Part shown: positions 1 through 12,660 of the stretch, piece after piece
Layout: every line of letters starts with the position of its first letter
Position numbering within the stretch: position 1 is the stretch's first letter
DNA from: a virus
Taxonomy: Duplodnaviria; Heunggongvirae; Uroviricota; Caudoviricetes
Virus record (IMG/VR): IMGVR_UViG_2711768060_000001
Location: 1 to 12,660 of that record
DNA length: 12,660 nt
Strand: one strand, 5' to 3'
Notes under the pieces: generated by a model
Told to the model about the DNA's origin: nothing
The model's input: only the letters and a program-made list of their open reading frames with translations
Databases searched by the model: none
Program-made: the position numbers and the translations under genes

Positions 1-297
1 TACCGACACCACCGATACCAGCACCGCACACAGTGCATCCGCCGATGTACCGTCATAACCTGTTTTTGCTGCAATCCAGGCTGACAGCACGCGCGCTCCC
101 AGCACGCCGACAATGAACGACACCAGAAAATGTGCCGCCACCCGCCAGGCTGAAAGCGCCTGCGGCATCGTTGCCACAAACAACGCTCCGGCGAACGCCC
201 CAAACACAATCCCGAAATCCGTCCCGGTAAACAGTCCGAATACCGTCGCCCCGCCGAGCGCAGCGGCTGTACCAGAACCGGATAAGGGTTCAGACAT
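1..297 (-). CDS. Partial ORF (3' end beyond window edge) for a Gly/Ala-rich multi-pass membrane protein; possible holin at the start of a lysis cassette
   Basis: ATG at 297-295 preceded by AGGAGA (revcomp of 300-310). Translation MSEPLSGSGTAAALGGATVFGLFTGTDFGIVFGAFAGALFVATMPQALSAWRVAAHFLVSFIVGVLGARVLSAW... shows about three hydrophobic segments. Position is downstream of Q-like gene, morons and terminators. Holin call is inferred from position and topology only. Confidence 0.5.
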   Translation of the reverse strand, partial: MSEPLSGSGTAAALGGATVFGLFTGTDFGIVFGAFAGALFVATMPQALSAWRVAAHFLVSFIVGVLGARVLSAWIAAKTGYDGTSADALCAVLVSVVSV

Positions 298-459
298 ACT
301 TTTTCTCCTGTAAAGAAAAAAGGGCCACCAGCAGCCCGCAAAAAAAACGCCCACCAAAGGCACCCGCAGATGCCTTTGGTGTGGAGTTATTTGATGTGCG
401 CCGGTCGTGGCGCGAGGAAGTGAAATAAGACTTACCTGAAATTAAGGTTAATCTTAGGG

Positions 460-488
460 TTTAAACCATTTTTAATGCTTAGTAATAT
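460..488 (+). promoter_or_regulatory. Candidate sigma70 promoter (TTTAAA-N17-TAATAT) for a short plus-strand transcript
   Basis: -35 TTTAAA at 460-465, 17-nt spacer, -10 TAATAT at 483-488; no ORF with RBS follows; intrinsic terminator about 55 nt downstream. Confidence 0.25.
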
Positions 489-494
489 GAACTC

Positions 495-572
495 GTCCCC
501 AGAAGGGGCCAATACTTATTCTTCTTCACGGACTTTGTCCCGCGGCGTTAATCCGACAGCCGCGCTTTTTTT
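495..572 (+). ncRNA. Candidate small RNA of about 80 nt between the promoter above and the terminator at 541-572
   Basis: No coding potential; internal hairpin CCCC-AGAA-GGGG (about 500-511); ends in stem CGCGGC/GCCGCG plus T7. Purely structural inference. Confidence 0.2.
541..572 (+). terminator. Rho-independent terminator (plus strand)
   Basis: Stem CGCGGC (541-546) / GCCGCG (559-564), 12-nt loop, followed by T7 at 566-572. Confidence 0.55.
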
Positions 573-608
573 GCGCCATATTCATCGCTGACTTATATGG
601 CATTGCCA

Positions 609-643
609 CACGGACATTATCAGTGTCCGTGTTTTCTTTTTTT
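609..643 (+). terminator. Rho-independent terminator (plus strand), second of a tandem pair
   Basis: Stem CACGGACA (609-616) / TGTCCGTG (624-631), 7-nt loop, followed by TTTTCTTTTTTT (632-643). Confidence 0.55.
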
Positions 644-652
644 GAATTCAGA

Positions 653-681
653 ATAAAAAAAACCGCCCAGTGGAGGCGGTT
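653..681 (-). terminator. Rho-independent terminator (minus strand), downstream of the tRNA genes
   Basis: Stem AACCGCC (661-667) / GGCGGTT (675-681) with the plus-strand A-run 653-662 giving a U-run after the hairpin on the minus strand. Confidence 0.55.
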
Positions 682-843
682 GGTCAATGCATGAGATCAA
701 TCATTTTTATTGTAATAGAAATCGAGGTGTCGGGTGCCTCCCGAAATATCCATCCCTACAACAGATATTGTGATTCCCCGTTAAACCACTATATAAACCA
801 CCCTCGCACTGAGGAACACCTCTGCGGTGCTGTTTACAACACC

Positions 844-905
844 AGAATGATGCATCACCGACCCTGCCAGGAAATACAAAATCTCCACCGATAATGCATC
901 ATTCT
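844..905. repeat. Perfect 13-bp inverted repeat CAGAATGATGCAT / ATGCATCATTCTG separated by 36 bp
   Basis: Arms at 844-856 and 893-905 are exact reverse complements; spacer contains CACCGA ... CCACCGA. Lies in a non-coding stretch between the tRNA genes and the terminators. Confidence 0.6.
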
Positions 906-1045
906 GCTGCCGTAAAAATTCAGCACTGAGGCTACACCCGACCTCAAATCATAGCCAGAGAACAGAATACCATTTAAACACAATCCGCTCCCACGTAATA
1001 AAAAATACGCCAGTGCTGTAATACAATAAGGCTTATTACAAATGT

Positions 1046-1120
<75 letters not shown>

Positions 1121-1123
1121 ATA

Positions 1124-1199
<76 letters not shown>

Positions 1200-1260
1200 A
1201 TTGGTTCTTCGGGGGAGCGATATCACCGATGAACAGGAGTTCCCCTCAGAACCGTTGCGC

Positions 1261-1288
1261 ATAATAACGGGCAAAAAAATTACTTCAA
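1261..1288 (-). promoter_or_regulatory. Candidate promoter for the tRNA-Thr/tRNA-Gly transcript
   Basis: On minus strand: -35 TTGAAG (1288-1283), 16-nt spacer, -10 TATTAT (1266-1261), then GC-rich GCGC discriminator; about 55 nt upstream of the mature tRNA-Thr 5' end. Confidence 0.35.
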
Positions 1289-1376
1289 CCAAAATAATCC
1301 GAAAAATAATCCCGGATTTGTAAATATATGCATATTTTTTATTTTTTCTAAAATAAAGAAATTACCAAATACACAT

Positions 1377-2423
1377 TTAACGATTATTTTTTATTTCAGT
1401 TACAGTCTGATTAAATCTCTCTTCTTCCAGTTCCACGCCAATCGCACGGCGTCCCAGTGAAAGTGCCGCTTTTATTGTTGAGCCTGAGCCCATGAAAAAA
1501 TCAGCAACCAAATCACCCGGACGGCTGCTGGCAGTAATTATCTGGCGCAACATATCGGCTGGTTTTTCACAGGGATGTTTGCCAGGGTAATACTGCACAG
1601 GCTTGTGCGTCCAGACATCCGTATACGGAACGGCAGCCGATACGGAAAAATAACGCCGCAGGGATTTGTACTCTTCCAGCAGGCTGGCATATTGCTGGTT
1701 CAGTTCACTGTATGTGCTGACCAGCTGGTGGTGTGGCTTTTCCGGTTCCCCGCGCTGATGTTTTTCTGCCGCAACACGCGCAAACAACACCTGCAATTTG
1801 TTGTAATCACCCTCGTTCGGTAATTGCCACTGACTGGTACCAAACCAGTGCGAAGCCATGTTTTTCTTTCCGGTGGCTTCCGCTATCTGTTTTGACGTTA
1901 TCCCCAGTGATTCACGCGCATCGCGAAAGTAAGAAATCAGCGGGGCCATGACGTGCTGTTTTAGCTCGCGCCCCTTTGCCGCATAGCCGTCATTTTTGGG
2001 CTGGTATGGCCCCTGATAATGTTCTGCAAACAGAATGCGTTCTGTTGCCGGGAAATACGCCCGCAGGCTTTCCTTGCTGCATCCGTTCCAGCGTCCGGAC
2101 GGCTTCGCCCAGATAATGTGGTTCAGCACATTAAAGCGTTCACGCATCATGATTTCGGTGTCAGATGCCAGGCGATGACCACAGAACAGGTAAAGACTTC
2201 CGGCAGGCTTCAGTACCCGCCAGAACTGCGCCAGACATCGGTCCAGCCATTTCAGATAATCATCGTCGCCCTTCCACTGGTTATCCCAGCCCTCGGGCTT
2301 CACTTTAAAGTATGGCGGGTCTGTGACTATCAGATCGACAGAGTTTTCCGGTATGGTCTGGATAAATTCCAGGCAATCAGCGTTGATTAACTCACAACTG
2401 GATATTTTTACAGTATTAGCCAT
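1377..2423 (-). CDS. Orphan DNA methyltransferase (N6-adenine or N4-cytosine, DPPY-type, beta-class motif order)
   Basis: 348-aa ORF with ATG start; motif IV TDPPY near the N-terminus (LIVTDPPYF) and motif I FxGxG near the C-terminus (DFFMGSGST). No restriction endonuclease partner nearby. Confidence 0.85.
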   Translation of the reverse strand: MANTVKISSCELINADCLEFIQTIPENSVDLIVTDPPYFKVKPEGWDNQWKGDDDYLKWLDRCLAQFWRVLKPAGSLYLFCGHRLASDTEIMMRERFNVLNHIIWAKPSGRWNGCSKESLRAYFPATERILFAEHYQGPYQPKNDGYAAKGRELKQHVMAPLISYFRDARESLGITSKQIAEATGKKNMASHWFGTSQWQLPNEGDYNKLQVLFARVAAEKHQRGEPEKPHHQLVSTYSELNQQYASLLEEYKSLRRYFSVSAAVPYTDVWTHKPVQYYPGKHPCEKPADMLRQIITASSRPGDLVADFFMGSGSTIKAALSLGRRAIGVELEEERFNQTVTEIKNNR

Positions 2424-2559
2424 AGATCAATAAGCACTTCTCTGATAGGCTCATACCGCTTTTGCGCAAAGCAGATGGGCCTGAGGTTTGCTTGTGACCC
2501 CAACGCACGAGCAGATGGCTGGCAGGTGCCGCTAACACCCACCAGCCGCCCATTACCAC

Positions 2560-2587
2560 AAATAAAAAAGCCTTCGCTAAGGAAGGC
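2560..2587 (-). terminator. Candidate rho-independent terminator (minus strand) between the small ORF and the methyltransferase gene
   Basis: Stem GCCTTC/GAAGGC (2570-2587) overlapping the TAG stop of ORF 2577-2894; plus-strand A-run 2562-2569 gives the U-run on the minus strand. Confidence 0.45.
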
Positions 2588-2894
2588 GTCTGTAACAACC
2601 GAACTGATAATCTGCCAGACCCGCCATAACAAGCTGAGTCAGTATTAACTGGCAGCGTTCGCGTGAAAGGTAAGTATTCTGCGCAATTTCCCCGACGGTC
2701 GCCGGTTCGGTGACGCTTAATTCATTAAACACCACTCTGGCAGTTTCGGTCATATCCTGCTGTTTTAGCATGTCTTTTTCCCTTTTCTGGTTAACGTGAC
2801 ATACCATTAACTCTTGTCGGAACAGCCAGCAAGCTGAAAGACCAGTATTCGCAACCACCAGCGCGTTTAATGTTCTGTACCGTTTTTCTGACAT
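2577..2894 (-). CDS. Small hypothetical protein, possibly winged-helix/HTH-like; start uncertain
   Basis: 105-aa ORF; the ATG at 2894 directly abuts the terminator U-tract with no SD. Internal ATG at 2771 has AAGGGA 8 nt upstream and would give a 64-aa product (MLKQQDMTETARVVFNELSVTEPATVGEIAQNTYLSRERCQLILTQLVMAGLADYQFGCYRRLP). Confidence 0.45.
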   Translation of the reverse strand: MSEKRYRTLNALVVANTGLSACWLFRQELMVCHVNQKREKDMLKQQDMTETARVVFNELSVTEPATVGEIAQNTYLSRERCQLILTQLVMAGLADYQFGCYRRLP

Positions 2895-2925
2895 AAAAAA
2901 AAACCTGCCAGGCGACAGGTTTTTT
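2895..2925 (-). terminator. Strong rho-independent terminator immediately downstream of the Q-like gene (tR'-like)
   Basis: Hairpin ACCTG-CCAGGCGA-CAGGT (2903-2920) flanked by A9 (2895-2903) and T5 (2921-2925); on the minus strand the hairpin is followed by U9. Confidence 0.6.
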
Positions 2926-2975
2926 GCTTACTTTGCCATCGCGTAAAAAATCGGCAAAATATCAGATTTGCACGA

Positions 2976-3004
2976 AATATATGCCTTTTAATCTACTTTT
3001 GCAA
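2976..3004 (-). promoter_or_regulatory. Candidate late promoter (pR'-like) overlapping the 3' end of the Q-like gene
   Basis: On minus strand: -35 TTGCAA (3004-2999), 17-nt spacer, -10 TATATT (2981-2976); predicted transcript of about 70 nt ends at the terminator 2895-2925. Confidence 0.35.
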
Positions 3005-3677
3005 TACCTTGCCTGGACAATATCGTCTTTTGTTTCGAACGTGTTCTCGCCGCAAACAATAAAGCTTCGCTATCCAGCTGATGAAAAATGTGTTTCATTG
3101 CAACCCAGTGACCAGTAAATGTTTTGGACCAGTTTTTGGTTGTTATTCCCGCCAGTAATGCCAGATCCTGGTATTCATAACCTTCTCCACCAAAAAGTTC
3201 TGCTTTTACTGCCTGCGCCGCCAGCCAGATTAATTTTTTCAGGCGTTCCCGTGTTTTCTCTGCAATTTTCCTGTTGCCAGAATGAGCCTTAAACTCTTCC
3301 CATGCCCAGCGGGTTATGGTGACCTGATACTCCCAGCAAATATTTCCGCTGTAACACCACAACAACCAGGTTTTATGAGGTTCTTCAAGAGACAGAACAG
3401 CCCGTCGCCATGAGGATGTCGAAAACTCAACCTGACTTACCAGAGGAATTGACGTCCCCTTCGCCAGCGATTGTTTCCCCGGGATTGGTGGATTATCCCG
3501 CGTGATAATTTTTCCAGTCACTTCATCGCGGTACCGGATTTTTTTACGCCTGTAACGCCCTGTATCGAACATGGCATTCTTCTGCCAGGCTTCAAGCTGA
3601 CCTTTTGTTGCCCCACTCAAATCGGCGGTGGCGATAATGAGCTGCTCACGAACAAACTGTAAATACTGGTTATTCAT
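2988..3677 (-). CDS. Putative late-gene antiterminator (Q-like)
   Basis: ORF track start at 3683 is GTG; the ATG at 3677 overlaps the rusA stop (ATGA). Product about 229 aa. Q assignment rests on synteny (after rusA and a YdfU-like gene, directly before a promoter plus terminator) and on recalled size of Qin-type Q proteins, not on a verified motif. Confidence 0.55.
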   Translation of the reverse strand: MNNQYLQFVREQLIIATADLSGATKGQLEAWQKNAMFDTGRYRRKKIRYRDEVTGKIITRDNPPIPGKQSLAKGTSIPLVSQVEFSTSSWRRAVLSLEEPHKTWLLWCYSGNICWEYQVTITRWAWEEFKAHSGNRKIAEKTRERLKKLIWLAAQAVKAELFGGEGYEYQDLALLAGITTKNWSKTFTGHWVAMKHIFHQLDSEALLFAARTRSKQKTILSRQGIAKVD

Positions 3678-4039
3678 GCGCACTCCAGCTCTGTGATTTT
3701 TATCCCCAACCGACCACCAGGAACGACCTGACCGCGCACAATATTAATTTCATCAAACTGCTCGTCGTCTATGAGCAGCCCCGCATGCGTCAGCGCATCC
3801 AGTGGTGCTTTCAGGATATTGTCCAGATCACGACGGCGTTTATCCGGTGGCTCTGCAATAATCTTTATCGCCAGCCTTCCGGACAGATTTAATTTCAGCC
3901 GCTGCTGGCGAACAATTAGCGCCACATCACGGCGATAACGCTCACCGACTTTTGATACAAAATATGTGCTGCCACGACGCCGCCAGTAAGTATTCACCGT
4001 CGGCGGATAAGGCAAAACAAATTCTATGCGTTCGGTCAT
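3674..4039 (-). CDS. rusA: RusA-family Holliday junction resolvase
   Basis: 121 aa with RusA hallmarks: LPYPPTVNTYWRRRG near the N-terminus, PDKRRRDLDNILKAPLDALTHAG, C-terminal GGRLGIKITE; about the same length as E. coli RusA. Confidence 0.9.
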   Translation of the reverse strand: MTERIEFVLPYPPTVNTYWRRRGSTYFVSKVGERYRRDVALIVRQQRLKLNLSGRLAIKIIAEPPDKRRRDLDNILKAPLDALTHAGLLIDDEQFDEINIVRGQVVPGGRLGIKITELECA

Positions 4040-5095
4040 TTATGCTTTCCACTTCAGGACACCCGAATTTCTCGCGTGCATTAAAAAACGAATCAGCAAC
4101 AACAGCTGGCTGCCGTGTTTTTCTTCAAAATCTTTTACTCCGGCGTGCAGTTCGTTATGACATTTACGGCACAGCGGAATAACAAACAAATCATCAGCCT
4201 TTGTTCCCATCCCTCCCAGTCCATGACCAATGATGTGATGCGGATCATCTGCCTGATTGCCACACGTCAGGCATTTCTGTGTTTTTACCCAGCGCGTGTA
4301 TACAGGCATCTCTTCCCGTTGTGGTTTCTGGCGCTGGAGATACTGAGCCGGTGACTCCGGATCAACGGCAATGCTGACCACCGTCTTTTCCTGTGGCGGG
4401 TTTTGCTGGTGGGCGTGAGGCAGCGGCGCAAGATTTTTTGTGCGCTGTTTCAGTATGCTGGTGGCGGTCTGTTCTCCCGGTACGATGTCGCTTTCGCGGT
4501 ACACCGAGCGAATTTTTTCCGCACGCAACCCCAGAGAACGACGTAATACTACCTCCGGTAGTGCGTCCGCCACCTGATTGCAGACCGCCCACCAGGATAA
4601 TTCAGCCAGCGATAATTCCCGCTCCTGTGTGCCATTCACTGCATGGCGTATGACGTCAATCATCCATGCTGACAGGTTTTGGTGAGCAAGTTGCCCGAGT
4701 GATTCTGAGGTCTGGTCACGCAACTGGTTGTCGCAGTGCCAGCACAATACCATCGCGCCGGTGCCGTAACGATATATGACGGTTTCACTGTGATGATAAT
4801 CGCCGTGTGGCCACTGGCAGGATTTAATATGGCGCAACAGCCAGTCAGACAATGCACCAGCACCACCGGCAGCACGAATTACCCGCTCATCGCTGAAAAA
4901 TGGCAGTAATGATTTATCTTCCGCCAGCGGCTGGCGAACGGCAGGAACGACTCCGGACGGCAGACCGCGCATACTTTTCGGTTCCGGTTCCACCAGTACT
5001 CTGCCGTTATGGAATACCTGCATGGATTCACGGCCAGGCTTAACGATAACCAGTCCGAGTTCCGGTACCAGAACAGGTCGAAGCAATACCCGCAT
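4040..5095 (-). CDS. ydfU: YdfU-like prophage protein (DUF968-like) with a C-terminal Cys/His HNH-like motif
   Basis: 351 aa; ATG at 5095 with GGAGG 5 nt upstream; C-terminus CLTCGN...DPHHIIGHGLGGMGTKADDLFVIPLCRKCHNELH. Family name recalled from Qin-prophage YdfU (similar length), not searched. Confidence 0.7.
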   Translation of the reverse strand: MRVLLRPVLVPELGLVIVKPGRESMQVFHNGRVLVEPEPKSMRGLPSGVVPAVRQPLAEDKSLLPFFSDERVIRAAGGAGALSDWLLRHIKSCQWPHGDYHHSETVIYRYGTGAMVLCWHCDNQLRDQTSESLGQLAHQNLSAWMIDVIRHAVNGTQERELSLAELSWWAVCNQVADALPEVVLRRSLGLRAEKIRSVYRESDIVPGEQTATSILKQRTKNLAPLPHAHQQNPPQEKTVVSIAVDPESPAQYLQRQKPQREEMPVYTRWVKTQKCLTCGNQADDPHHIIGHGLGGMGTKADDLFVIPLCRKCHNELHAGVKDFEEKHGSQLLLLIRFLMHARNSGVLKWKA

Positions 5096-5096
5096 G

Positions 5097-5375
5097 TTAC
5101 CTCCAGATGCGTTGCTGGAATGTGCGGGATGGACGTGGTGGGCGTTCGGAATAAGGAAGCCTGACGGAAATTATCCAGTGTCGGAAGTCAAGACTGAGGT
5201 CTTTCCTGACCTCGCGTCCGCGCCTGCGATAACACTGAATCAGCCATTCGGCCTGTTCTTCAGTGCACGGATCATGCTGGTACCAGTCAGTTTTAAAGAC
5301 GTGTGAACGCCGCCCGTACCGGATGGCAGGGTCGGCTGAGTTATCAGAATTGTGAAATTTGGTCTTGTGCGCCAT
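5097..5375 (-). CDS. Hypothetical nin-region protein; start uncertain (ATG 5375 or TTG 5429)
   Basis: ORF track start at 5429 is TTG; first ATG at 5375 gives 92 aa (MAHKTKFHNSD...). The TAA stop at 5097-5099 lies 1 nt from the start of the next gene. Confidence 0.5.
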   Translation of the reverse strand: MAHKTKFHNSDNSADPAIRYGRRSHVFKTDWYQHDPCTEEQAEWLIQCYRRRGREVRKDLSLDFRHWIISVRLPYSERPPRPSRTFQQRIWR

Positions 5376-5444
5376 CTGTTTTCTCTGCTGGCGCAGCAGG
5401 TGCCAGTTGTTCAGGCTGGCGTGCGGCAATATTGTCTCTGATTT

Positions 5445-5475
5445 CTGTTGTCGTCAACAGGCAGCGTGCTATCAT
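5445..5475 (+). promoter_or_regulatory. Candidate promoter with overlapping palindrome for the parDE-like operon
   Basis: Palindrome CTGTTG-TCGT-CAACAG (5445-5460) overlapping -35 TTGTCG (5448-5453); 16-nt spacer; -10 TATCAT (5470-5475); about 35 nt upstream of the antitoxin ATG. Confidence 0.35.
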
Positions 5476-5510
5476 CGAATAGTGTTCTATCCTACTCCGT
5501 GAGGTTTACC

Positions 5511-5768
5511 ATGCGTACAACCCAACAATTCAGCATTACATTAACTAACGAGATGGCTGACATGGTGCGCGCCCGTGTGGCTTCCGGTGCCTATGCTTCA
5601 GAAAGCGAGGTCATTCGTGAAGGGCTTCGCGCACTGAATGAGCGCGATAAAGCAATCGAAGCGTGGTTAACGCATTCAGCCGCCCCCTCTCTTGATTCTA
5701 TCCGCGAAAATCCAAACAACGGACGCTCCATTTCACAGGTTCGCGCCGCGATTCGATCCGGGAAGTAA
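5511..5768 (+). CDS. parD: ParD-family (ribbon-helix-helix) antitoxin
   Basis: ATG at 5511 with GAGG 8 nt upstream (ORF track start 5448 is a non-ATG extension). 85 aa, motif YASESEVIREGLRALNERD typical of ParD antitoxins; directly upstream of a ParE-like toxin. Confidence 0.8.
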   Translation: MRTTQQFSITLTNEMADMVRARVASGAYASESEVIREGLRALNERDKAIEAWLTHSAAPSLDSIRENPNNGRSISQVRAAIRSGK

Positions 5769-5773
5769 TCTGC

Positions 5774-6073
5774 ATGACATATGAAGTCATCATTACTCCT
5801 GAGGCCGAACAACAAATAATCAACCTGCACAGATATATAACGGAGAAAGCAGGAAGCGTCATTGCTGACAATTATGCCAATGCGCTTCTTGATTATCTTG
5901 ATGGGTTTTCTACATTCCCGCATCGGGGCAATAAACGCGATGATATTCGCCAGGGGATGCGGGTAACTCATTTCCGCCACAGAACGATTATTGCTTTTGC
6001 CGTTGATGGCAGAAAAGTCTTTATTGTCGGTATCTATCATGGTGGGCAAAGTTATGAAACCGATTTCTTATAA
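5774..6073 (+). CDS. parE: ParE-family toxin
   Basis: 99 aa, 5 nt after the antitoxin stop; ParE/RelE-fold pattern (MTYEVIITPEAEQQIINLHRYI ... RKVFIVGIYHGGQ). Confidence 0.85.
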   Translation: MTYEVIITPEAEQQIINLHRYITEKAGSVIADNYANALLDYLDGFSTFPHRGNKRDDIRQGMRVTHFRHRTIIAFAVDGRKVFIVGIYHGGQSYETDFL

Positions 6074-6156
6074 ACTTTTACCCACATCATTCCGGTGTTA
6101 GAATAAACCGTCCGCCCCCTCTCTTACTGGCGGATTCGTAGGCTATATAAATCAAA

Positions 6157-6190
6157 GATCCCGGCTCATGTTTGTGCCGGGATCTTTTTT
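6157..6190 (+). terminator. Rho-independent terminator after parE, placed between convergent genes
   Basis: Stem GATCCCGGC (6157-6165) / GCCGGGATC (6176-6184), 10-nt loop, T6 at 6185-6190. Confidence 0.6.
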
Positions 6191-6197
6191 CGGCGAT

Positions 6198-6281
6198 TTA
6201 TCCCCAGCGGCAAATCGAATACACCACCAGCGCCACAGCCATTGCGATTCCTGCCGTTGTAAATGCCTCAGGCCAGGTCAT
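6198..6281 (-). CDS. 27-aa hydrophobic single-helix peptide, translationally coupled to the upstream 301-aa gene
   Basis: Not in the ORF track (under 60 aa). ATG at 6281-6279 overlaps the TGA stop of ORF 6278-7183 (ATGA); GGAGGA lies 10 nt upstream. Translation MTWPEAFTTAGIAMAVALVVYSICRWG, TAA stop at 6200-6198. Confidence 0.35.
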   Translation of the reverse strand: MTWPEAFTTAGIAMAVALVVYSICRWG

Positions 6282-7183
6282 CGTAAAACATCCTCCACAC
6301 CAACCAGTCCGTTCTGCTTCAGATATTCCATCGCCTTATCAGGTAGATTGCTTGATTTATTGACGCTTTTTAACGAACTGGCTAATCGCTTAACCAACAT
6401 TGTTAATTCGTTAACCTGTTTTCCGGATGCTTGTGGATTGTCAGTTTTACCAGAAGTGGCGGTACAGTCGGCGTTCCCACTCTTCACCTCCTGCGGCGGC
6501 TCCGGTAGCGGCATCCAGTACAAGGCGTTCCCTAACCACGATAAAGTGCCGTCGCTCAACTCCACGTATTCCCCTTGTACCTGTCCTGCCATATACTCGC
6601 CGTGCTTTGAATAAATTAAAACCCAATCATCTTGCGCGGGAATCCGCTCACTACAGCTTATCCAACCATCCTTAGTTGCCGGGGAGCTGGTTGACGAATT
6701 CTTATTTTCCCGAAAGTTTCCGGCCTGAAACATAGCGGCGCGGTGACACCAGATAATCCAGCCAATCGCCATATCCCATGCCATGTATTCGCTACCGCCA
6801 TTTTTTGCCCTGCGGCGATCTACAGAATCCCCGAAATGCTTCTCCATAAATAACTCATAGGCAGCCCGTTCATCCGGCACTACCAGCATTGGCGGCGTGG
6901 CGTATAGCTTACGGGTCTGAACACCTGCCCCCTGGCATTTCTCTTCCTCAACAAATCTTTCGAAAGCATATTCCCCGCAATCTTCCCATTCTCCCCATTC
7001 ATCATATTCTGCATCCCACTGGCGATACTGATATGCCACCGGTTCTGCTACCAGCGATGCCAGCGCGATACGAAACACATTAGCAAGCAGGCTATTTGAA
7101 GATTGGTTATCGTGCGCCGCGTCGCTCAGGAAGCCAGTGATGAACGATTTAATCTCCACGTTTTTTCTGGTAATAGTGGTCAT
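6278..7183 (-). CDS. Hypothetical prophage protein (301 aa); C-terminal half may be DUF551-like
   Basis: ATG at 7183 with GAGGA 8 nt upstream; start overlaps the stop of the upstream 69-aa ORF (ATGA). Trp/acidic-rich middle (YQYRQWDAEYDEWGEWEDCGEY); the domain guess is from memory and low confidence. Confidence 0.75.
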   Translation of the reverse strand: MTTITRKNVEIKSFITGFLSDAAHDNQSSNSLLANVFRIALASLVAEPVAYQYRQWDAEYDEWGEWEDCGEYAFERFVEEEKCQGAGVQTRKLYATPPMLVVPDERAAYELFMEKHFGDSVDRRRAKNGGSEYMAWDMAIGWIIWCHRAAMFQAGNFRENKNSSTSSPATKDGWISCSERIPAQDDWVLIYSKHGEYMAGQVQGEYVELSDGTLSWLGNALYWMPLPEPPQEVKSGNADCTATSGKTDNPQASGKQVNELTMLVKRLASSLKSVNKSSNLPDKAMEYLKQNGLVGVEDVLR

Positions 7184-7389
7184 TTGTTAATCCTCAAAAC
7201 TTTATGCCCGGGTGCAAAAGCACGCGTTTTGTCTTTGCTTATTCGCCAACCATCCTTGCGCGCCTCTTTTGCACAGCCAGCCCATGACGTACCGATATAC
7301 TCACCAAAGTCTGGCGACTGATATTTGCCATCCGTACACTGGCGGCAATCACAATAGAGATGCATGGTATAACTTGCGGCAATACCCAT
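7180..7389 (-). CDS. Small Cys-rich (putative zinc-binding) hypothetical protein
   Basis: 69 aa, MGIAASYTMHLYCDCRQCTDGKY...GTSWAGCAKE; ATG directly follows the upstream TGA stop (TGAATG) with AAAGGAGG SD. Confidence 0.65.
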   Translation of the reverse strand: MGIAASYTMHLYCDCRQCTDGKYQSPDFGEYIGTSWAGCAKEARKDGWRISKDKTRAFAPGHKVLRINK

Positions 7390-7749
7390 TCAGCCTCCTT
7401 TGATGCCAGTGTTTACAACCAGGCAGGCCTCTTTGAGTATCCAGTCAACAGCGTCTTTCCATGCTCCGGTTTCGACTGGCGGATTTTCACGCTTAACCTG
7501 TTCATAGAAGCGCACTGCTTTAACCAGTCCTTCTGATGTCACCGGGGCTGGCGTGGCAGTGAATAAGGCCTGAATCTCATAGCTCGGCCTGTCGTTGCAA
7601 TCCTCTTTTGTCGGTACATATTTCCAGTCACCAACCCACATCTTCTCCTGAAAGTCCGTAACGCCTTTTTTCACATAGCGATATCTCCATGCAACTGGTT
7701 TTGCCTGCCCTACCGTTTCATGCCCTTCCTGATAATTAATCTCGCTCAT
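7390..7749 (-). CDS. Hypothetical prophage protein (119 aa)
   Basis: ATG at 7749-7747 overlaps the stop of the upstream 58-aa ORF (ATGA); no recognised motifs. Confidence 0.7.
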   Translation of the reverse strand: MSEINYQEGHETVGQAKPVAWRYRYVKKGVTDFQEKMWVGDWKYVPTKEDCNDRPSYEIQALFTATPAPVTSEGLVKAVRFYEQVKRENPPVETGAWKDAVDWILKEACLVVNTGIKGG

Positions 7750-7922
7750 TCATCGCCCCACTCATCACAATATGCTTCGACAGGTGTTTTTCCTGCTTCG
7801 TAGTCATCACGCCAGGCTTCAGCATCAGCAGCACTTCCACCACGTAACTCTGCATAATCCATTAACAGTTCATGCCATTCTTCAAAACTGACGTTGTATT
7901 TAGTTGAACCAAAATCAGCCAT
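7746..7922 (-). CDS. Small acidic hypothetical protein (58 aa)
   Basis: Not in the ORF track. ATG at 7922 preceded by GAGGAGGAAG; translation MADFGSTKYNVSFEEWHELLMDYAELRGGSAADAEAWRDDYEAGKTPVEAYCDEWGDE; its stop overlaps the next start (ATGA). Confidence 0.5.
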   Translation of the reverse strand: MADFGSTKYNVSFEEWHELLMDYAELRGGSAADAEAWRDDYEAGKTPVEAYCDEWGDE

Positions 7923-8097
7923 TTTGTTCTTCCTCCTCGTCTTTTATTTCGTGATATGAGTAATTGCAGTAGTTAAAGAAAATTTCTTTTGCTTCGTCAT
8001 GAATTTCATCAGGTGTTGCGTCATCGTCCACTTCGAATACATCCTCAAAATCTCCACCAGCTATTCCCGTTTCAATAATTATTTTGAACTTTCGCAT
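7915..8097 (-). CDS. Small highly acidic hypothetical protein (60 aa)
   Basis: ATG at 8097; product is rich in D/E (…DFEDVFEVDDDATPDEIHDEAKE…KDEEEEQNG); 3' end overlaps the next ORF start by 8 nt. Confidence 0.55.
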   Translation of the reverse strand: MRKFKIIIETGIAGGDFEDVFEVDDDATPDEIHDEAKEIFFNYCNYSYHEIKDEEEEQNG

Positions 8098-8168
8098 TTC
8101 ACTACCGCCTTTTCGGGTGGCCTCCTGATGTTCTGAGGGTGCAGAAATCCCTCCTGTTAAGGATTAAT

Positions 8169-8185
8169 ATTTAGCAGTGCTAAAT
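8169..8185. repeat. AT-rich perfect palindrome ATTTAGCA-G-TGCTAAAT in the intergenic gap
   Basis: 8-bp arms around a central G at 8177; lies between the stop of ORF 8190-8936 and the start of ORF 7915-8097. Confidence 0.5.
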
Positions 8186-8189
8186 TTAA

Positions 8190-8936
8190 TTAACTGCGGG
8201 AAAAATCAGTAATCTGTCGAACAATATCCCGGTGCCTGTTCAACTCCCGCAGCGCGGCGCAGATACGCTCCCACTTCTGGACATGATTTTTCGCCCGACG
8301 CAGTTCGCGATTTGCCATATGCAGCGATGGCAAAACCAGGTCATCCGCTTGTGTTTCGGTGAACGATGGCAACGACTGCACAATGTCCGCCACAGTTTCT
8401 GTTTTAATATCTTCCTGTGTTGCAGCCTCCTGTACTGGTAACGCAACACCTGCGGGCTGAGGAAAGGCCTTACCATCAGTTTCCGCTACCGATGCTGCTT
8501 TCGGCTCTGCTGGTAAATTATCGCCCGGTATGCAGTAACGAAATTTACCGCCCTGATTTACGCGAATCAGACGACCTTTGCTGATTGCCATTGCCAGCGT
8601 TGAAGCCACTTTGCGGGATGTTGTACCGAACAGCGTAGCCAGTTCATCCGCCGTTTGTGGGCCACGTTGTTCAATCGTCGAAGTTAAATCGCTCTCCGAA
8701 ATTTTCGTCACTGTTGCCGTAGTGGTTTCTTCCGGCAGTACTGCCTGTGCTGGCTGTCCCTGCTGAACGTTGTTATCAGCCACACGCCAGGTGTATACGC
8801 TTCTATCAACGAAGCCAGCCTTTTTCAGTTCCCACAGCTCGTTCAGCACTTCTTCACGACTGATATCAAGTCGCGCTGCCAGTTCTACCGACGTGGCTTT
8901 TCCCATTGCTTTCAGTGCGTCAAAAACGGTCTCCAT
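8190..8936 (-). CDS. Prophage protein with N-terminal winged-helix-like region (DUF1627-like); start reassigned to internal ATG
   Basis: ORF track start 9002 has a poorly spaced SD and would overlap the P-like gene; the ATG at 8936 has GGGAGG 8 nt upstream and gives 248 aa ([45 protein letters not shown]...). Family name from memory. Confidence 0.7.
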
Positions 8937-8970
8937 TAAAATTTCCTCCCGGTAAAAATTACTTCTCAAC

Positions 8971-9636
8971 TCAAACAAACCCAGCCGCTTTCCGGCGTTC
9001 ATATTCCTGTTTCAGCAACTCAATTGGAGTTGGCCCCGACGGGCGTTCTGGTGCAGCCAGTTGCCGCCGTACGGGCGGAACACTGAAGCCGTCACCAACA
9101 TGCTTTGCCCATTTCGCCAGTTGCCGTTCTGCAAGTCGTTTTAACTCCCCTTCGGTCATCTGGCGCTCAATCCCCTTTGAACGCATCTCGAGGCAAATGT
9201 GATACAGCACAGGCTGAGACCACGGGTATTTATCGCTTCCGTCGTATCGCCAGGACTCGTTGCGCCAGCGGCGGTACTCCTCCATCACGGCATCCACAGT
9301 CAAACCAAACGGATTTGCCCCACTTTCCGAAATCAACGCCACAAACTCTGCCAGGTCAGGAGGCCATGTTTCACCCGCCCGACAACGCTCCATGCACTGG
9401 CGGCAGACCTGCCGGATTTGCTGCTCAGTCATCGCGCCAATCTGTGCAATCCAGAGCTTCGAAGGTGCGGCCCCGTTCTTCTGAGTCCAGCGGTTCGAAT
9501 AAACCTCCCCCATGAGTTCCCACAGCTTCCACGCCGTTTCCGTCGCTGATAAATCCGTTTTCACGTTCCCACTGCTCACGTGCTGCCCGAATTTCCTGAA
9601 CTGCCCGTGATGCGGTGCCACCTGGCGTTGCTGCAT
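8971..9636 (-). CDS. Lambda-P-like replication protein (helicase loader)
   Basis: 221 aa; ATG at 9636 with AAGGGGGTGA SD. Segments such as [27 protein letters not shown] and [20 protein letters not shown] parallel recalled lambda P segments (FVAWCREE, YPWKSNAHYWLVTNL, TDAELRRKAADELVHMTARI). Overlaps the O-like ORF by 212 nt in another frame. Confidence 0.75.
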
Positions 9637-10465
9637 GGCTCACCCCCTTGCTGACTGGTTTAACCTGCGCCCTGACGTGATTTACGTGACGGGCGAATTT
9701 CTGCTCCCACTGAACCTGCGTGAAAACTTTCCCCTCCGCTGCCCAGTAGTCCCGGAAGGCGGCAAGTTCAGCAGGTGTAAATTCCGGCTCCGGCAGAGCC
9801 ACTCCCCACAGTGCAGCCCGTTGTCGGAAATCGGGCGACGGATTCCAGCCGTCGGTCATCGGAAATTTTCCGATGGGTTCGCTCAGACCTTCCAGGTAAT
9901 CAGGTTCCGCTGCCTGCAACGGCGCGCCATTCGACTCACTGGTCGGAGCGATCTCGCGCACGCGCGCGCTATGTGTGGGGTTTAATTCTTTATCTGTATC
10001 TGTATCTGTCGTGACTCGTCGTGACATGTCGTGACATATGCGTGACTCGTCGTGACATTCCTCATTCTGTTTTCGTAATTTTTCCCTCTCACGCTGCGCT
10101 CTCTTGCGCTCTGCCGGGGATTTCGCGGTTTGAGAAACGTTACCGTTGTCCTCTTTCAGTACCTGGCGTTTTTCCCATCCAGTGATTAAATCTCCATCAA
10201 GCACCCGCCCCTGCATTGCTTGCAAAATTGAATCAATTACGTCTTCCGTCACATCAAGCGCACTTGCTAAATCTTCCGTCGTGACATCAATGTGACCCCG
10301 TAGTGACACGCCGTGACATGTCGTGACATTTCGTGACGCGCTAACCAGAAGGTGGATATACACCGCCATCACTGTTGCAATCGGCTGTCCTGACACCCTT
10401 GAAATTGTTCGCCACTTAGGGTCATTTGGCATGTCATGCCATAATCTGAGCCAGGCGTTGGCCAT
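9425..10465 (-). CDS. Replication initiator (lambda-O-like role) with iteron arrays embedded in its coding sequence
   Basis: ORF track start 10471 is GTG; ATG at 10465 has AGAGGTGA SD. Positioned directly upstream of the P-like gene. Contains two arrays of GTGAC-core direct repeats and a (TD)3 linker encoded by (TATCTG)3. Confidence 0.7.
   Translation of the reverse strand: MANAWLRLWHDMPNDPKWRTISRVSGQPIATVMAVYIHLLVSASRNVTTCHGVSLRGHIDVTTEDLASALDVTEDVIDSILQAMQGRVLDGDLITGWEKRQVLKEDNGNVSQTAKSPAERKRAQREREKLRKQNEECHDESRICHDMSRRVTTDTDTDKELNPTHSARVREIAPTSESNGAPLQAAEPDYLEGLSEPIGKFPMTDGWNPSPDFRQRAALWGVALPEPEFTPAELAAFRDYWAAEGKVFTQVQWEQKFARHVNHVRAQVKPVSKGVSHAATPGGTASRAVQEIRAAREQWERENGFISDGNGVEAVGTHGGGLFEPLDSEERGRTFEALDCTDWRDD
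9991..10056. repeat. (TATCTG)x3 tandem repeat followed by iteron array A: five (T)CGTGAC repeats at 10-11 bp spacing
   Basis: TATCTG x3 at 9991-10008; GTGAC cores at 10011, 10021, 10031, 10042 and 10052. An alternating CG tract (9951-9970) lies adjacent. Confidence 0.65.
10278..10337. repeat. Iteron array B: six GTGAC-core direct repeats at 10-11 bp spacing
   Basis: GTGAC at 10281, 10292, 10303, 10313, 10323 and 10333, same orientation as array A and about 225 bp from it; inside the N-terminal coding region of the O-like gene. Confidence 0.6.
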
Positions 10466-10536
10466 ACTCACCTCTTCTGATACCGAATCTTTTTACTCAC
10501 GAGTTTCCGGAAGCGATCCGGTATGAATATTGTCAG

Positions 10537-10962
10537 TCAATGTACCGCCACAGCATTTCCTGCCGGGCCACCACGATTCATCTGATCGAACAAAGTGATC
10601 GCTGATGCAACAAACTCGTCGATATCTTTCACCAGGCGCTCCCGTCGCTCGACAAGCTCCCGGTGATATTCCGAACTGTGGCTGCGCATCCAGGCCACCA
10701 GCGGAGGTGGCATTGCCTTTTCGATCGCTGGTAACAGCGCCTGAATTTTTTCAACAGCATCAGGAGTGTCTTTATCTAGCCAACGGAAAATCTTTTGGGT
10801 GTTGAGATAAAGTGCGTTGTGCTTGCTGTCGTTATGCAGAACCGGAAACGTCATACCCAGCTCAAAATAAGCCCTGGTTATTTCAGCTGCCGGAACTTTT
10901 TCACCGTCCGGATGCGCCCAGGCATTCATCGCCATGCGGATGTGTTCATGCTTGATTTTCAT
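10537..10962 (-). CDS. ydaT: YdaT-like protein (Rac prophage family; CII-like, toxic on derepression)
   Basis: 141 aa; begins MKIKHEHI and ends ...VH like recalled Rac YdaT; its start overlaps the stop of the upstream YdaS-like gene. Confidence 0.75.
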   Translation of the reverse strand: MKIKHEHIRMAMNAWAHPDGEKVPAAEITRAYFELGMTFPVLHNDSKHNALYLNTQKIFRWLDKDTPDAVEKIQALLPAIEKAMPPPLVAWMRSHSSEYHRELVERRERLVKDIDEFVASAITLFDQMNRGGPAGNAVAVH

Positions 10963-11218
10963 GAATCAACTCCGGCGCATTTGATGTGTTAGTCTTACAT
11001 CCAACAGGTAAACCGTCGGTTGGGTTAGGATAAATATCAGGGCGAATTTCATGCGGGGTAACTTCCCACTTCATTAACTGGCATAACGGAATTACCTGCT
11101 TTGGGGGAACGCCAAAGCTAAACCATTGCCAAACGGTCTGTTGAGCGACCCCCATATAGCGACCTATTTCAGCTTGAGTGTATTTCTGCCTAATTTTTTC
11201 GCGAGTGCTATCTAGCAT
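10946..11218 (-). CDS. ydaS: YdaS-like Cro-type HTH protein
   Basis: ATG at 11218 with GAGGAGGG SD (ORF track start 11272 is an upstream extension); motif GVAQQTVWQWFSFGVPPKQV...IRPD; divergent from the repressor gene. Confidence 0.7.
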   Translation of the reverse strand: MLDSTREKIRQKYTQAEIGRYMGVAQQTVWQWFSFGVPPKQVIPLCQLMKWEVTPHEIRPDIYPNPTDGLPVGCKTNTSNAPELIHENQA

Positions 11219-11253
11219 TTTGCCCTCCTCTGAAAACGATAAACAAAGCCTAC

Positions 11254-11288
11254 AATAAAAAACTGTATGCAATCAACAGTTTTTTATT
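11254..11288. promoter_or_regulatory. Operator-like perfect palindrome AATAAAAAACTGT-N9-ACAGTTTTTTATT in the divergent promoter region
   Basis: 13-bp arms at 11254-11266 and 11276-11288 are exact reverse complements; lies between the YdaS-like and repressor genes; the same CTGT/ACAG core recurs at 12288-12324. Confidence 0.5.
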
Positions 11289-11326
11289 GTGATGCTTTTA
11301 ACAGTATTTACCTGTAAAATTGAATA

Positions 11327-11728
11327 ATGATGAACGCCCTAGAAGTATCTATGTACAGAATCAGCAAGCTTCTTCAGGAAACTGGATGGAGCCAGGCTGA
11401 ACTTGCCCGTAGAATTGGTGTGACACAACAAACTGTTCAACAATGGGTCAGCGGTAAGGCCACACCTAAAGCCTCAAGTTTGGATAAACTGGTTGAGGTT
11501 ACAGGGCATCCATTGCATTGGTTTTTATTGCCTCCAGAAGAGGGGGAGCAAATTTTCACCCCTGACACGATGAAAATTGGTCCTCGCCAACGCGAACTGC
11601 TCCAAGCTTTTAGTGCGTTTCCAGAGGAAGACCAAGAAAAAATGCTTCAAGAAATCAAAGACAAGAAAAAATCAATGGAAGAAACCATTGCCCGGTGGTT
11701 GGCGGCACAAAAAAGCCGCCGGGCGTGA
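11327..11728 (+). CDS. Prophage repressor, XRE/CI-type HTH, lacking a LexA-like S24 protease domain (RacR-like role)
   Basis: 133 aa; N-terminal HTH (SQAELARRIGVTQQTVQQWVSGKATP); too short for a C-terminal autocleavage domain; divergent from YdaS-like; no SD, with -10-like TAAAAT (11315-11320) ending 6 nt before the ATG. Confidence 0.8.
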   Translation: MMNALEVSMYRISKLLQETGWSQAELARRIGVTQQTVQQWVSGKATPKASSLDKLVEVTGHPLHWFLLPPEEGEQIFTPDTMKIGPRQRELLQAFSAFPEEDQEKMLQEIKDKKKSMEETIARWLAAQKSRRA

Positions 11729-11755
11729 CCACTGTACAAGAAGAGGAGTTATGCC

Positions 11756-11947
11756 ATGAATACAGCCCTTTCTCCGATAGTTTCAGAATTCGAAACTACC
11801 GAACAAGAAAACAGTTACAACGAATGGTTGCGCGCTAAAGTGGCGTTAAGCCTTGCAGACCCTCGCCCCGCAATTCCACATGACGAGGTAATGGCTGAAA
11901 TGGAAAATCTTATTGCTCAAATTGCTGCAACTAACAGGAGCGAGTAA
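11756..11947 (+). CDS. Putative antitoxin of a RelE/ParE-type toxin-antitoxin pair
   Basis: 63 aa; GAGGAG SD; stop overlaps the start of the downstream toxin (TAATG). Assignment mainly by genetic context. Confidence 0.65.
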   Translation: MNTALSPIVSEFETTEQENSYNEWLRAKVALSLADPRPAIPHDEVMAEMENLIAQIAATNRSE

Positions 11948-12234
11948 TGTTACCCATTTTATGGCTACCATCTGCTCGCGATGATTTGCGTCAGATCGTA
12001 ACCTATATTGCTAAGGAAAACATTCCTGCAGCACGCAGACTAAAAATACGTATTGAAACGTCTGTTTTAGCCCTCTCTGAGCATCCATATCTATATCCGC
12101 TAAGTGATCGAGTATCCGGTTTGCGGGAAATTGTGGTTCACCCTAATTATATCGTGTTGTACCGAGTAGCAACTTCAAGCATTGAAATTGCGAATATTGT
12201 GCATGCCCGTCGACAATTTCCCTTCTCTATCTGA
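11947..12234 (+). CDS. RelE/ParE-superfamily toxin
   Basis: 95 aa; MLPILWLPSARDDLRQIVTYIAKENIPAARRL...EIVVHPNYIVLYRV...IEIANIVHARR fits the RelE/ParE pattern; translationally coupled to the antitoxin. Confidence 0.8.
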   Translation: MLPILWLPSARDDLRQIVTYIAKENIPAARRLKIRIETSVLALSEHPYLYPLSDRVSGLREIVVHPNYIVLYRVATSSIEIANIVHARRQFPFSI

Positions 12235-12250
12235 GCCGAACAATTTCCAT

Positions 12251-12277
12251 ACTCCCTCACTCGAGGGAGTTTTTTTG
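12251..12277 (+). terminator. Rho-independent terminator after the toxin gene
   Basis: Stem ACTCCCTC (12251-12258) / GAGGGAGT (12263-12270), 4-nt loop, T-run 12270-12276. Confidence 0.65.
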
Positions 12278-12287
12278 CCTAAAACAA

Positions 12288-12330
12288 CAATTAAAAACTG
12301 TTGACACAAAACAGTTTTTAATTGTAGATT
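12288..12330 (+). promoter_or_regulatory. Rightward early promoter overlapped by a 15-bp-arm operator palindrome (pL-like)
   Basis: Palindrome CAATTAAAAACTGTT-gacacaa-AACAGTTTTTAATTG (12288-12324); -35 TTGACA at 12301-12306 inside it; -10 TAGATT at 12325-12330 (18-nt spacer). Confidence 0.5.
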
Positions 12331-12509
12331 GTTTTTACCAACCCACCCCGCCCCACAGAACGCAGGGCAATACTTCGAGTTACCAGGCAGTGGTCAGGGG
12401 TTAAGTAGCCAGCCCGAGGCGTAAGAACATGACGGCAGGGTTCAACTTTAATAACTATGCAGCAGGTTTTTGTTCCGCTACCCCGGCGTTAAGGGGAAAT
12501 GAGGTCAAC

Positions 12510-12660
12510 ATGGATACTATCGATCTTGGCAACAACGAATCTCTGGTGTACGGCGTGTTTCCCAACCAGGACGGCACATTCACCGCGATGACGTATACCA
12601 AAAGCAAAACGTTTAAAACCGAAAATGGTGCCCGTCGCTGGCTGGAAAGAAACTCAGGTG
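12510..12660 (+). CDS. Partial ORF (continues beyond window), first gene of the rightward early operon; hypothetical
   Basis: ATG at 12510 with GAGG 6 nt upstream; open to the window edge (MDTIDLGNNESLVYGVFPNQDGTFTAMTYTKSKTFKTENGARRWLERNSG...). Confidence 0.55.
   Translation, partial: MDTIDLGNNESLVYGVFPNQDGTFTAMTYTKSKTFKTENGARRWLERNSG

Follow-up and report, generated by a model that had tools for sequence, protein, structure and literature searches.

Phased iterons inside a prophage initiator gene as a probable replication origin with two arrays

Does a set of short phased repeats within the putative initiator gene of a prophage mark its replication origin, and what does a second cluster of the same repeat contribute? 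This question arises from IMG/VR virus record IMGVR_UViG_2711768060_000001 (Duplodnaviria; Heunggongvirae; Uroviricota; Caudoviricetes), of which positions 1 to 12,660 were analysed; this whole stretch is referred to as the window. A preliminary description, made from the sequence alone, had proposed a candidate replication origin consisting of two phased iteron arrays, here called array A and array B, inside an O-like initiator gene. Our analysis bears out this candidate computationally, by its context in the slot of gene O, the codon-independent conservation of the repeats, the co-variation of their motifs, an AT-rich tract and the uniqueness of the clusters in the related phage Tritos. The region, which lies within the prophage's initiator gene, is probably the prophage's replication origin, and the same evidence supports the view that the arrays would be bound by the protein that encodes them. 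The coordinates of all features are collected in Table 1.

All eleven GTGAC cores of the two arrays have one orientation and follow each other at 10 or 11 bp. On the coding strand the core reads GTCAC, which is usually extended as TGTCACGAC in both arrays and takes the form GTCACG(A/C) in array A. The arrays are oriented alike and lie 225 bp apart (10056 to 10281). The preliminary description was thus right in counting eleven same-orientation repeats in two phased arrays (5 + 6 cores), in placing the arrays about 225 bp apart, and in locating all of them within the putative initiator coding sequence, the open reading frame (ORF) 9425-10465 of the minus strand. Counted in gene nucleotides, array B comes first (129-185, six copies) and array A second (410-455, five copies). 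Array A encodes a disordered interdomain linker (aa ~137-152, CHDESRICHDMSRRVT), and array B encodes the last part of helix 3 together with the hairpin or loop of lower confidence that precedes the helix-turn-helix (aa 43-62, ASRNVTTCHGVSLRGHIDVT). Tandem Repeats Finder reported period-10 arrays at 10008-10056 and 10303-10337. The hexamer CGTGAC was observed 13 times in the window versus 5.1 expected (2.5-fold over), a number that none of 200 shuffles reached, and nine of the 13 sites fall inside the two arrays; a scan of the 12.6-kb window for phased clusters found none besides arrays A and B. Palindromic iteron junctions (GACATGTC) were rejected as a feature, as they are present in two to three junctions here and are not kept in relatives.

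Table 1. Features of the putative origin region and its neighbourhood in the window.
Feature	Position	Strand	Description
Putative initiator gene	9425..10465	(-)	346 aa; winged-helix N-domain aa 1-~100, linker, DnaT-like single-stranded DNA-binding domain aa ~193-267
Array A, five direct iterons	10008..10056	(-)	+ strand GTGAC cores at 10011, 10021, 10031, 10042, 10052; spacing 10, 10, 11, 10 bp
Array B, six direct iterons	10281..10337	(-)	+ strand GTGAC cores at 10281, 10292, 10303, 10313, 10323, 10333
Single inverted core copy	10248-10252	(+)	GTCAC on + strand, GTGAC on coding strand, codons D-V-T
AT- and purine-rich tract	9979..10010	(-)	directly 3' of array A; coding strand ACAGATACAGATACAGATAAAGAATTAAAC; encodes TDTDTDKELN
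Alternating CG tract	9955..9969		CGCGCACGCGCGCGC; part of DnaT-type C-terminal module
Lambda P-like helicase-loader gene	8971..9432	(-)	Pfam Phage_lambda_P E=2e-16; PHROG 109 'P-like helicase loader'
cI-like helix-turn-helix repressor gene	11327-11728	(+)	
PaaA2-type antitoxin (PF21217) and ParE toxin (PF05016) genes	11756-12234	(+)	directly downstream of cI-like repressor gene

Selection on the DNA was assessed by synonymous resampling, in which the protein was held fixed and the codon usage was taken from the minus-strand genes of the window (20,000 trials). The initiator gene contains 12 GTCAC motifs versus a mean of 2.4 after resampling (maximum 9 in 20,000), which is a 5-fold enrichment; for array A a P value of 5e-5 was obtained, and the six copies of array B were reached in 0 of the 20,000 trials. 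The cores of array B are read as A-SR, VT, CH, V-SL, GH and VT and those of array A as CH, E-SR, CH, M-SR and VT, so that all three reading frames are used. Because the core is read in three frames and the period of 10-11 bp is not a multiple of three, the repeats are to be regarded as DNA elements and not as protein repeats. The repeats had also been said to impose VTT/CHD and TDTDTD motifs on the protein; the encoded peptide does look repetitive, while the three-frame reading rejects an origin of the repeats in the protein.

Conservation was followed at the codon level in loci that had been collected with protein patterns located away from the arrays and were not selected on DNA. Same-residue codons within array B are identical at a level of 0.93 in the GTCAC class and 0.85 in the GAACG class of genes, as opposed to 0.41 for other conserved codons (Mann-Whitney, 5e-6 and 2e-5, across genera), which upholds the expectation that the repeats are better conserved in relatives than other codons. 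A similar restriction is seen at the single inverted core, which comes about 30 bp after array B when the gene is read 5' to 3'. Among the same-residue pairs of the GTCAC class (column 95), 99% have GTG as the Val codon; this suggests that the inverted core is also under DNA-level constraint. Comparative sequence evidence identifies both arrays as DNA elements selected independently of coding, and this conservation of the DNA extends over hundreds of related prophages.

For the comparison at the DNA level, four metagenomic or Pseudomonas homologues and 63 species-level genome loci from Gamma-, Beta- and Alphaproteobacteria and Acidobacteria were used, and an array was scored if at least two copies of one motif were present in its zone (nt 96-240 of the gene for array B, nt 301-540 for array A). 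Both arrays were found in the same motif in 47 of 59 genes, with almost no copies elsewhere in the gene. The motifs fall into three classes, GTCACGC (27 loci), CGAACGC (25 loci) and GTAACGC (7 loci), which have ACGC in common and vary in the first three bases. Arrays A and B share one motif class in every gene, and the classes track the tree of the N-terminal domain (N-domain), from which the residues encoded by array B had been left out. Since the GTAAC class occurs at two separate places of this tree, the arrays must have switched together at least three times. As comparative sequence evidence thus indicates, the arrays share one recognition motif, which changes jointly in both and travels with the N-terminal winged-helix domain. 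The spacing within the arrays of 50 genes is equally regular, with 169 cases of 10 bp, 38 of 11 bp and 18 of 20/21 bp.

Array A is nearly universal in the family, and four relatives have a strong array A without array B (L122, 0/7; L140, 0/5; L148, 0/5; L132, 0/3; copies in array B/array A). The six copies of array B in the window compare with four in Tritos (L001), Shigella flexneri (L088) and most of the family. The expansion is a single in-frame block of 21 bp (10292-10312) that comprises two iterons and seven codons ('TCHGVSL') and is tolerated in the low-confidence loop of the winged helix. In the complete 46-kb genome of Tritos, a search for phased GTCAC clusters found none besides the two in the initiator gene. 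This gene (L151, 32105-33638) has only a 140-aa hypothetical protein next to it, and P-like, DnaC-like and helicase genes are missing there; the C-domain of the Tritos initiator must recruit the host loader in another way. Other relatives are located in modules of the order cI-cro-...-initiator-DnaB-type helicase.

The family is large and widespread. At E<=1e-3, 1,384 N-domain clusters (50% identity) match, close relatives were found in 586 IMG/VR stretches, and the 1.1-kb gene region is covered to at least 80% in 658 of 5,426 complete Escherichia coli genomes and partly in 2,564. Rac/Qin-like prophages and prophages adjoining Stx phages are among its members, and the phage collection contains 24 records with this N-domain, none of them a well-studied phage. 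Relatives are annotated as 'DnaT-like ssDNA-binding domain-containing protein' (ssDNA, single-stranded DNA) or 'pyocin large subunit', and their records show no feature for an origin; the latter name (E. coli RefSeq entries H24, H25 and H27) looks like a misannotation.

Array A adjoins an AT- and purine-rich tract, which reads (TATCTG)3 on the plus strand and corresponds to the repeat that the preliminary description had noticed next to array A, together with an alternating CG tract; both were located as given in Table 1. Tandem Repeats Finder described it as a period-6 repeat, (TCTGTA)3.8, at 9987-10009. Among the 30-mers of the gene it has the lowest stability, with a free energy of -32.1 kcal/mol (99.2th percentile of the window), and its GC content (35%) is also the lowest in the gene. 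In the homologues, a (GATAMA)n tract rich in AT and purines invariably comes after array A. The first 40 bp beyond the array have a mean of 66% AT versus 44% for the gene (50 homologues; Wilcoxon p=2e-9), and the tract, with the consensus (C/A)YAGATAAAGATAAAGAT, persists in hosts with only 31-39% AT. It is proposed here as a candidate DNA-unwinding element (DUE), and the core of the origin seems to consist of array A together with the (GATAMA)n tract. The CG tract is different: it occurs in ydaU of phage Rac-SA53, a gene with an unrelated N-domain and without GTCAC arrays, and is absent from Tritos and other relatives with different C-domains. From its distribution, the CG tract is assigned to the exchangeable C-terminal module and lies outside the conserved origin core.

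The design of iterons followed by such a tract extends beyond this family. An IMG/VR search for the exact 22-mer CAGATAAAGATAAAGATAAAGA yielded 64 loci, 28 of them in the N-domain family described here. Phased short repeats directly upstream of the tract were also found with other N-domains, namely Phage_rep_org_N (PF09681; GTAACG repeats), DUF1376 (YdaU type), DUF6291 and Lin1244_N. Seven such loci (L155, L161, L168, L189, L192, L213 and L166) have repeat motifs of their own followed by CAGATAAAGATAAAGATAAAG in linker codons, and in the two PF09681-positive ones (L155, L161) phased GTAACG repeats precede CAGATAAAGATAAAG in a layout identical to that of array A and its tract. A second array was found in none of the eight genes of other initiator families examined, each of which has a single array. 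The occurrence of iterons and (GATAAA)n in several initiator families points to a shared origin design of replisome-organiser-type initiators.

Two sets of initiator-binding repeats are known from other replicons. Iteron plasmids such as P1 (incC/incA) and F (oriS/incC) have a second, regulatory array of the same initiator-binding repeat, and the origins of Staphylococcus aureus pathogenicity islands contain two sets of short iterons (6-8 bp) flanking an AT-rich region. In these systems the arrays are outside the initiator coding sequence, whereas here both are in the ORF and only one is beside an AT-rich tract. Intragenic origins are represented by SPP1 and lambda. In SPP1, oriL, for which the design has been proven by experiment, is situated inside gene 38, where an AT-rich DUE adjoins the AB boxes bound by G38P; a fragment of 356 bp suffices in vitro (PMC5737612). 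In ori-lambda, inside gene O, an AT-rich tract lies on the transcriptionally downstream side of the iterons (PMC7466680). With its location in linker codons, array A and its tract can be seen as the counterpart of this 'iterons + DUE' arrangement of ori-lambda and SPP1 oriL.

The agreement with SPP1 oriL and the PF09681 type concerns the layout, with the origin within the initiator gene and direct repeats beside an AT-rich DUE, and the type of protein, a non-AAA+ initiator with an N-terminal DNA-binding domain and an exchangeable C-domain. However, the N-domain here gave no PF09681 match up to E=10, the C-domain is DnaT-like and not Phg_2220_C, and unlike the examples with PF09681, DUF1376, DUF6291 and Lin1244_N, the gene carries a second array in the region coding for the DNA-binding domain. 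The second G38P site of SPP1 (oriR) is a distant locus, whereas the second array here is 225 bp away. With ori-lambda, the region shares the mid-gene position between DNA-binding and loader-interacting domains, the AT-rich tract after the iterons and the P-like gene as the next gene; in ori-lambda and the six-iteron variants of Stx phages, too, the number of iterons changes by in-frame insertions that lengthen the protein. Lambda differs in having one cluster of about four ~19-bp iterons, as opposed to 10-11-bp units with an asymmetric 7-bp core in two clusters, so that the layout is indeed different from lambda's, as had been stated. An intragenic iteron origin is a known kind. New here are the layout with two arrays, the shortness of the cores (7 bp) and their three specificity classes that co-vary, the fusion of an uncharacterised winged-helix N-domain with a DnaT-like C-domain and the general rule of iterons plus (GATAMA)n. 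No description of this origin was found in the searchable literature.

A possible course of initiation can be outlined by inference from lambda and SPP1. After induction, rightward early transcription would lead to synthesis of the initiator, whose winged-helix N-domains would bind the 7-bp cores (GTCACGA/C). The 10-11-bp repeat would put all sites on one face of the helix and allow a cooperative protein array to form on array A, and this complex could destabilise the adjoining 30-bp tract (GATACA)3GATAAAGAATTAAA. The DnaT-like C-domain, the lambda P-like protein or both might then capture the single strands and bring the host DnaB.

Several roles are conceivable for array B in such a scheme. 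From the co-variation of the motifs we infer that it would be a second binding cluster for the same protein, and most likely it is an accessory or cooperative part of the origin, which acts via looping or via the local concentration of the initiator. Array B is kept in about 80% of the family, which argues that it matters, while the facts that it is sometimes absent and adjoins no AT-rich stretch speak for an accessory or regulatory role. That array B is the obligatory second half of a bipartite origin or switch, with the initiator binding inside the sequence of its own DNA-binding domain, is unlikely in our estimation. If this were true, initiator synthesis (transcription through array B) would be coupled to origin firing at array A, and a change in origin specificity would have to alter two arrays and the encoded protein loop at once, which is a self-referential constraint; it would also account for the agreement of the loop peptide (SRNVTRGH, SNATERGRT) with the iteron class. 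The main alternative is that array A and the AT-rich tract alone are the origin and array B is a control element. Initiator bound there, in the 5' part of its own gene, would stop transcription or slow it down, which would result in autoregulation and restrain the transcriptional activation of the origin; or array B would act by titration or 'handcuffing', as is known for the extra iteron arrays incA of P1 and incC of F. This explanation is possible, if on the whole somewhat unlikely. It would account for the loss of array B in the four relatives (L122, L140, L148 and L132) that keep a strong array A, for the missing AT-rich tract beside array B, for the single arrays of the eight genes from other families that share the design of array A and its tract, and for the variable copy number, with four copies in Tritos and Shigella versus six here. 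However, the orientation, spacing and motif class that array B has in common with array A and its retention in most relatives fit a structural role equally well, and a control element receives no help from the promoter prediction, which found no promoter-like site in the region.

An assignment of the arrays to another protein, for example as a parC-type partition centromere, a site for packaging, for regulation or for a host factor, is highly improbable. The idea is suggested by a resemblance to parC of R1, a centromere with two arrays of phased ~11-bp repeats, since the direct repeats here likewise form two arrays, each with about five phased 10-11-bp units. Yet the N-domain is the only constant linked gene, as the neighbours are P-like here and DnaB-type helicases elsewhere and neither is found in Tritos; the motif class follows the N-domain phylogeny, and a host factor would not switch its motif among relatives in the same host group. 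A parC-type centromere, in which such arrays flank the promoter of neighbouring ParM/ParR-type partition genes, was rejected in particular, since the arrays here are inside an ORF without a promoter-like site and no partition genes, such as ParM/ParR-like genes, are present in the window. There is next to no chance that the repeats arose simply from slippage or from a repetitive protein sequence and lack a cis function. The repetitive look of the peptides (VTT, CHD, SR; TDTDTD) is what such an explanation can draw on; it is effectively refuted by the synonymous resampling and the codon identity, with synonymous sites fixed across genera, and it does not agree with the core being read in all three frames, with both arrays switching their motif together, or with the position of the array B peptide in a lower-confidence loop and of the array A peptide in a disordered linker.

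Some observations weigh against an origin of the kind proposed here. Array B is not required throughout the family, since the four relatives mentioned keep array A alone, and about 8 of the 59 relatives, N-domain-HNH fusions included, are without recognisable arrays. The test of helical phasing between the arrays (Rayleigh R=0.48 for period 10 and 0.45 for period 9) is dominated by related sequences and by the counting of degenerate copies, and the synonymous-conservation test has some circularity, the classes having been defined by motif counts. A search for DnaA boxes (TTATNCACA, at most one mismatch) found none in 7857-10832, with a window-wide count not above chance, and no promoter-like site was predicted in 9300-11500. 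In the searchable literature, no replication or binding experiment for this initiator family was found.

Since the initiator family is common, a defined origin would provide a search rule, i.e. phased NNNACGC cores followed by (GATAMA)n in linker codons, which would locate origins in many temperate phages and in several initiator families. The three natural specificity classes are material for studying the co-evolution of initiator and iteron recognition, and the gene is a clean example of overlapping protein and cis-element coding. The definition of the origin would also explain a recurrent recombination joint at which initiator domains are shuffled.

This joint is apparent from the mosaic structure of the gene. 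Over 9400-10007, the C-half of the initiator gene shares 96% identity with the Rac-SA53 phage gene ydaU, whose N-domain is DUF1376-like and lacks GTCAC repeats, and the N-half (9987-10500) is 87% identical to the phages Evi and Tritos, whose C-domains differ. The BLAST alignments to both parental types overlap exactly at 9987-10007, i.e. in (GATACA)n, which encodes 'DTDTD', indicating that the tract is also a recombination joint for domain shuffling. On these alignments, the (GATACA)n tract looks like a conserved joint for the exchange of initiator domains. In Rac-SA53 ydaU itself (L002, 3600-3680), an inverted pair, TGTTCAAACA / TGTTTGAACA, is found just upstream of a GATACAGATACAGAT tract. 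This pair may be the initiator site of ydaU and possibly be relevant to the unmapped oriJ of Rac.

The initiator identity of gene 9425-10465 is based on its position and architecture, and it is O-like in this sense only. Of the earlier term O-like initiator, the O position in a lambdoid early-right operon stands, and homology to lambda O does not: no Phage_rep_O match was obtained with Pfam, either for the full protein or for aa 1-136 up to E=10, and the C-domain is DnaT-like. The N-terminal ~135 residues (aa 1-136 scanned) matched no Pfam family up to E=10, and a comparison of the N-domain with PF09681 (Phage_rep_org_N) gave no match even at E<=10. DnaT (PF17948) is the only Pfam match of the initiator (C-half, E=1.8e-18; PDB 6aep, E=8e-20). 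The C-terminal ssDNA-binding domain is thus homologous to that of E. coli DnaT, whereas the N-terminal two-thirds are unrelated; an orthologue of DnaT was rejected, as the NCBIfam equivalog NF002770 scored 95.4 bits, below its cut-off of 201, with an alignment confined to residues 194-271. PHROGs assigned the family label 'replication initiation protein', with weak matches to 'DnaD-like helicase loader' and 'replisome organizer'. PHROG 15931 is a profile of 482 positions that covers the initiator plus P.

According to the AlphaFold2 (AF2) prediction, the N-domain is a winged helix, with the N-terminal domain of DnaD and a RepA_N plasmid initiator as nearest structures; a sequence-profile search of the N-domain against solved structures gave no link. 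The segment encoded by array A is a linker with a low predicted local distance difference test score (pLDDT), and the pLDDT is also lower at aa 41-60 (array B). Class-specific columns (28-33, 42, 72-74 and 103) were considered as specificity residues in the recognition helix and rejected, as they are confounded by phylogeny; the 'DVT' codons themselves carry the inverted iteron. The winged-helix N-domain is also found fused to an HNH nuclease domain (P0051, P0081, P0107; L149). L149, the HNH fusion that was examined as DNA, is without both arrays, which indicates that the N-domain has been reused outside replication initiators.

The order of genes, with cI-like, cro-like, cII-like, initiator and lambda P-like genes, is that of a lambdoid early-right region. 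On the minus strand, cro/YdaS-like, cII-like/YdaT, initiator, P-like and DUF1627 genes are followed further on by DUF968, RusA, Q and a DNA methylase. The start of the P-like gene overlaps the stop of the initiator gene (ATGA), and the RefSeq orthologue, 'replication protein P' with 153 aa, starts at this overlap (9432). The P-like ORF is also readable from an ATG at 9636 (8971-9636), in which case it shares 212 nt with the initiator gene in a different frame, and the Phage_lambda_P alignment starts 13 residues upstream of the start at 9432. Terminator-like matches in the region were at chance level, and the Rfam and tRNA scans gave no match in the initiator and array region. Two tRNA genes that lie side by side (Gly-TCC and Thr-TGT) occupy 1046-1199 on the minus strand, downstream of the genes for the Q antiterminator and the DNA methylase.

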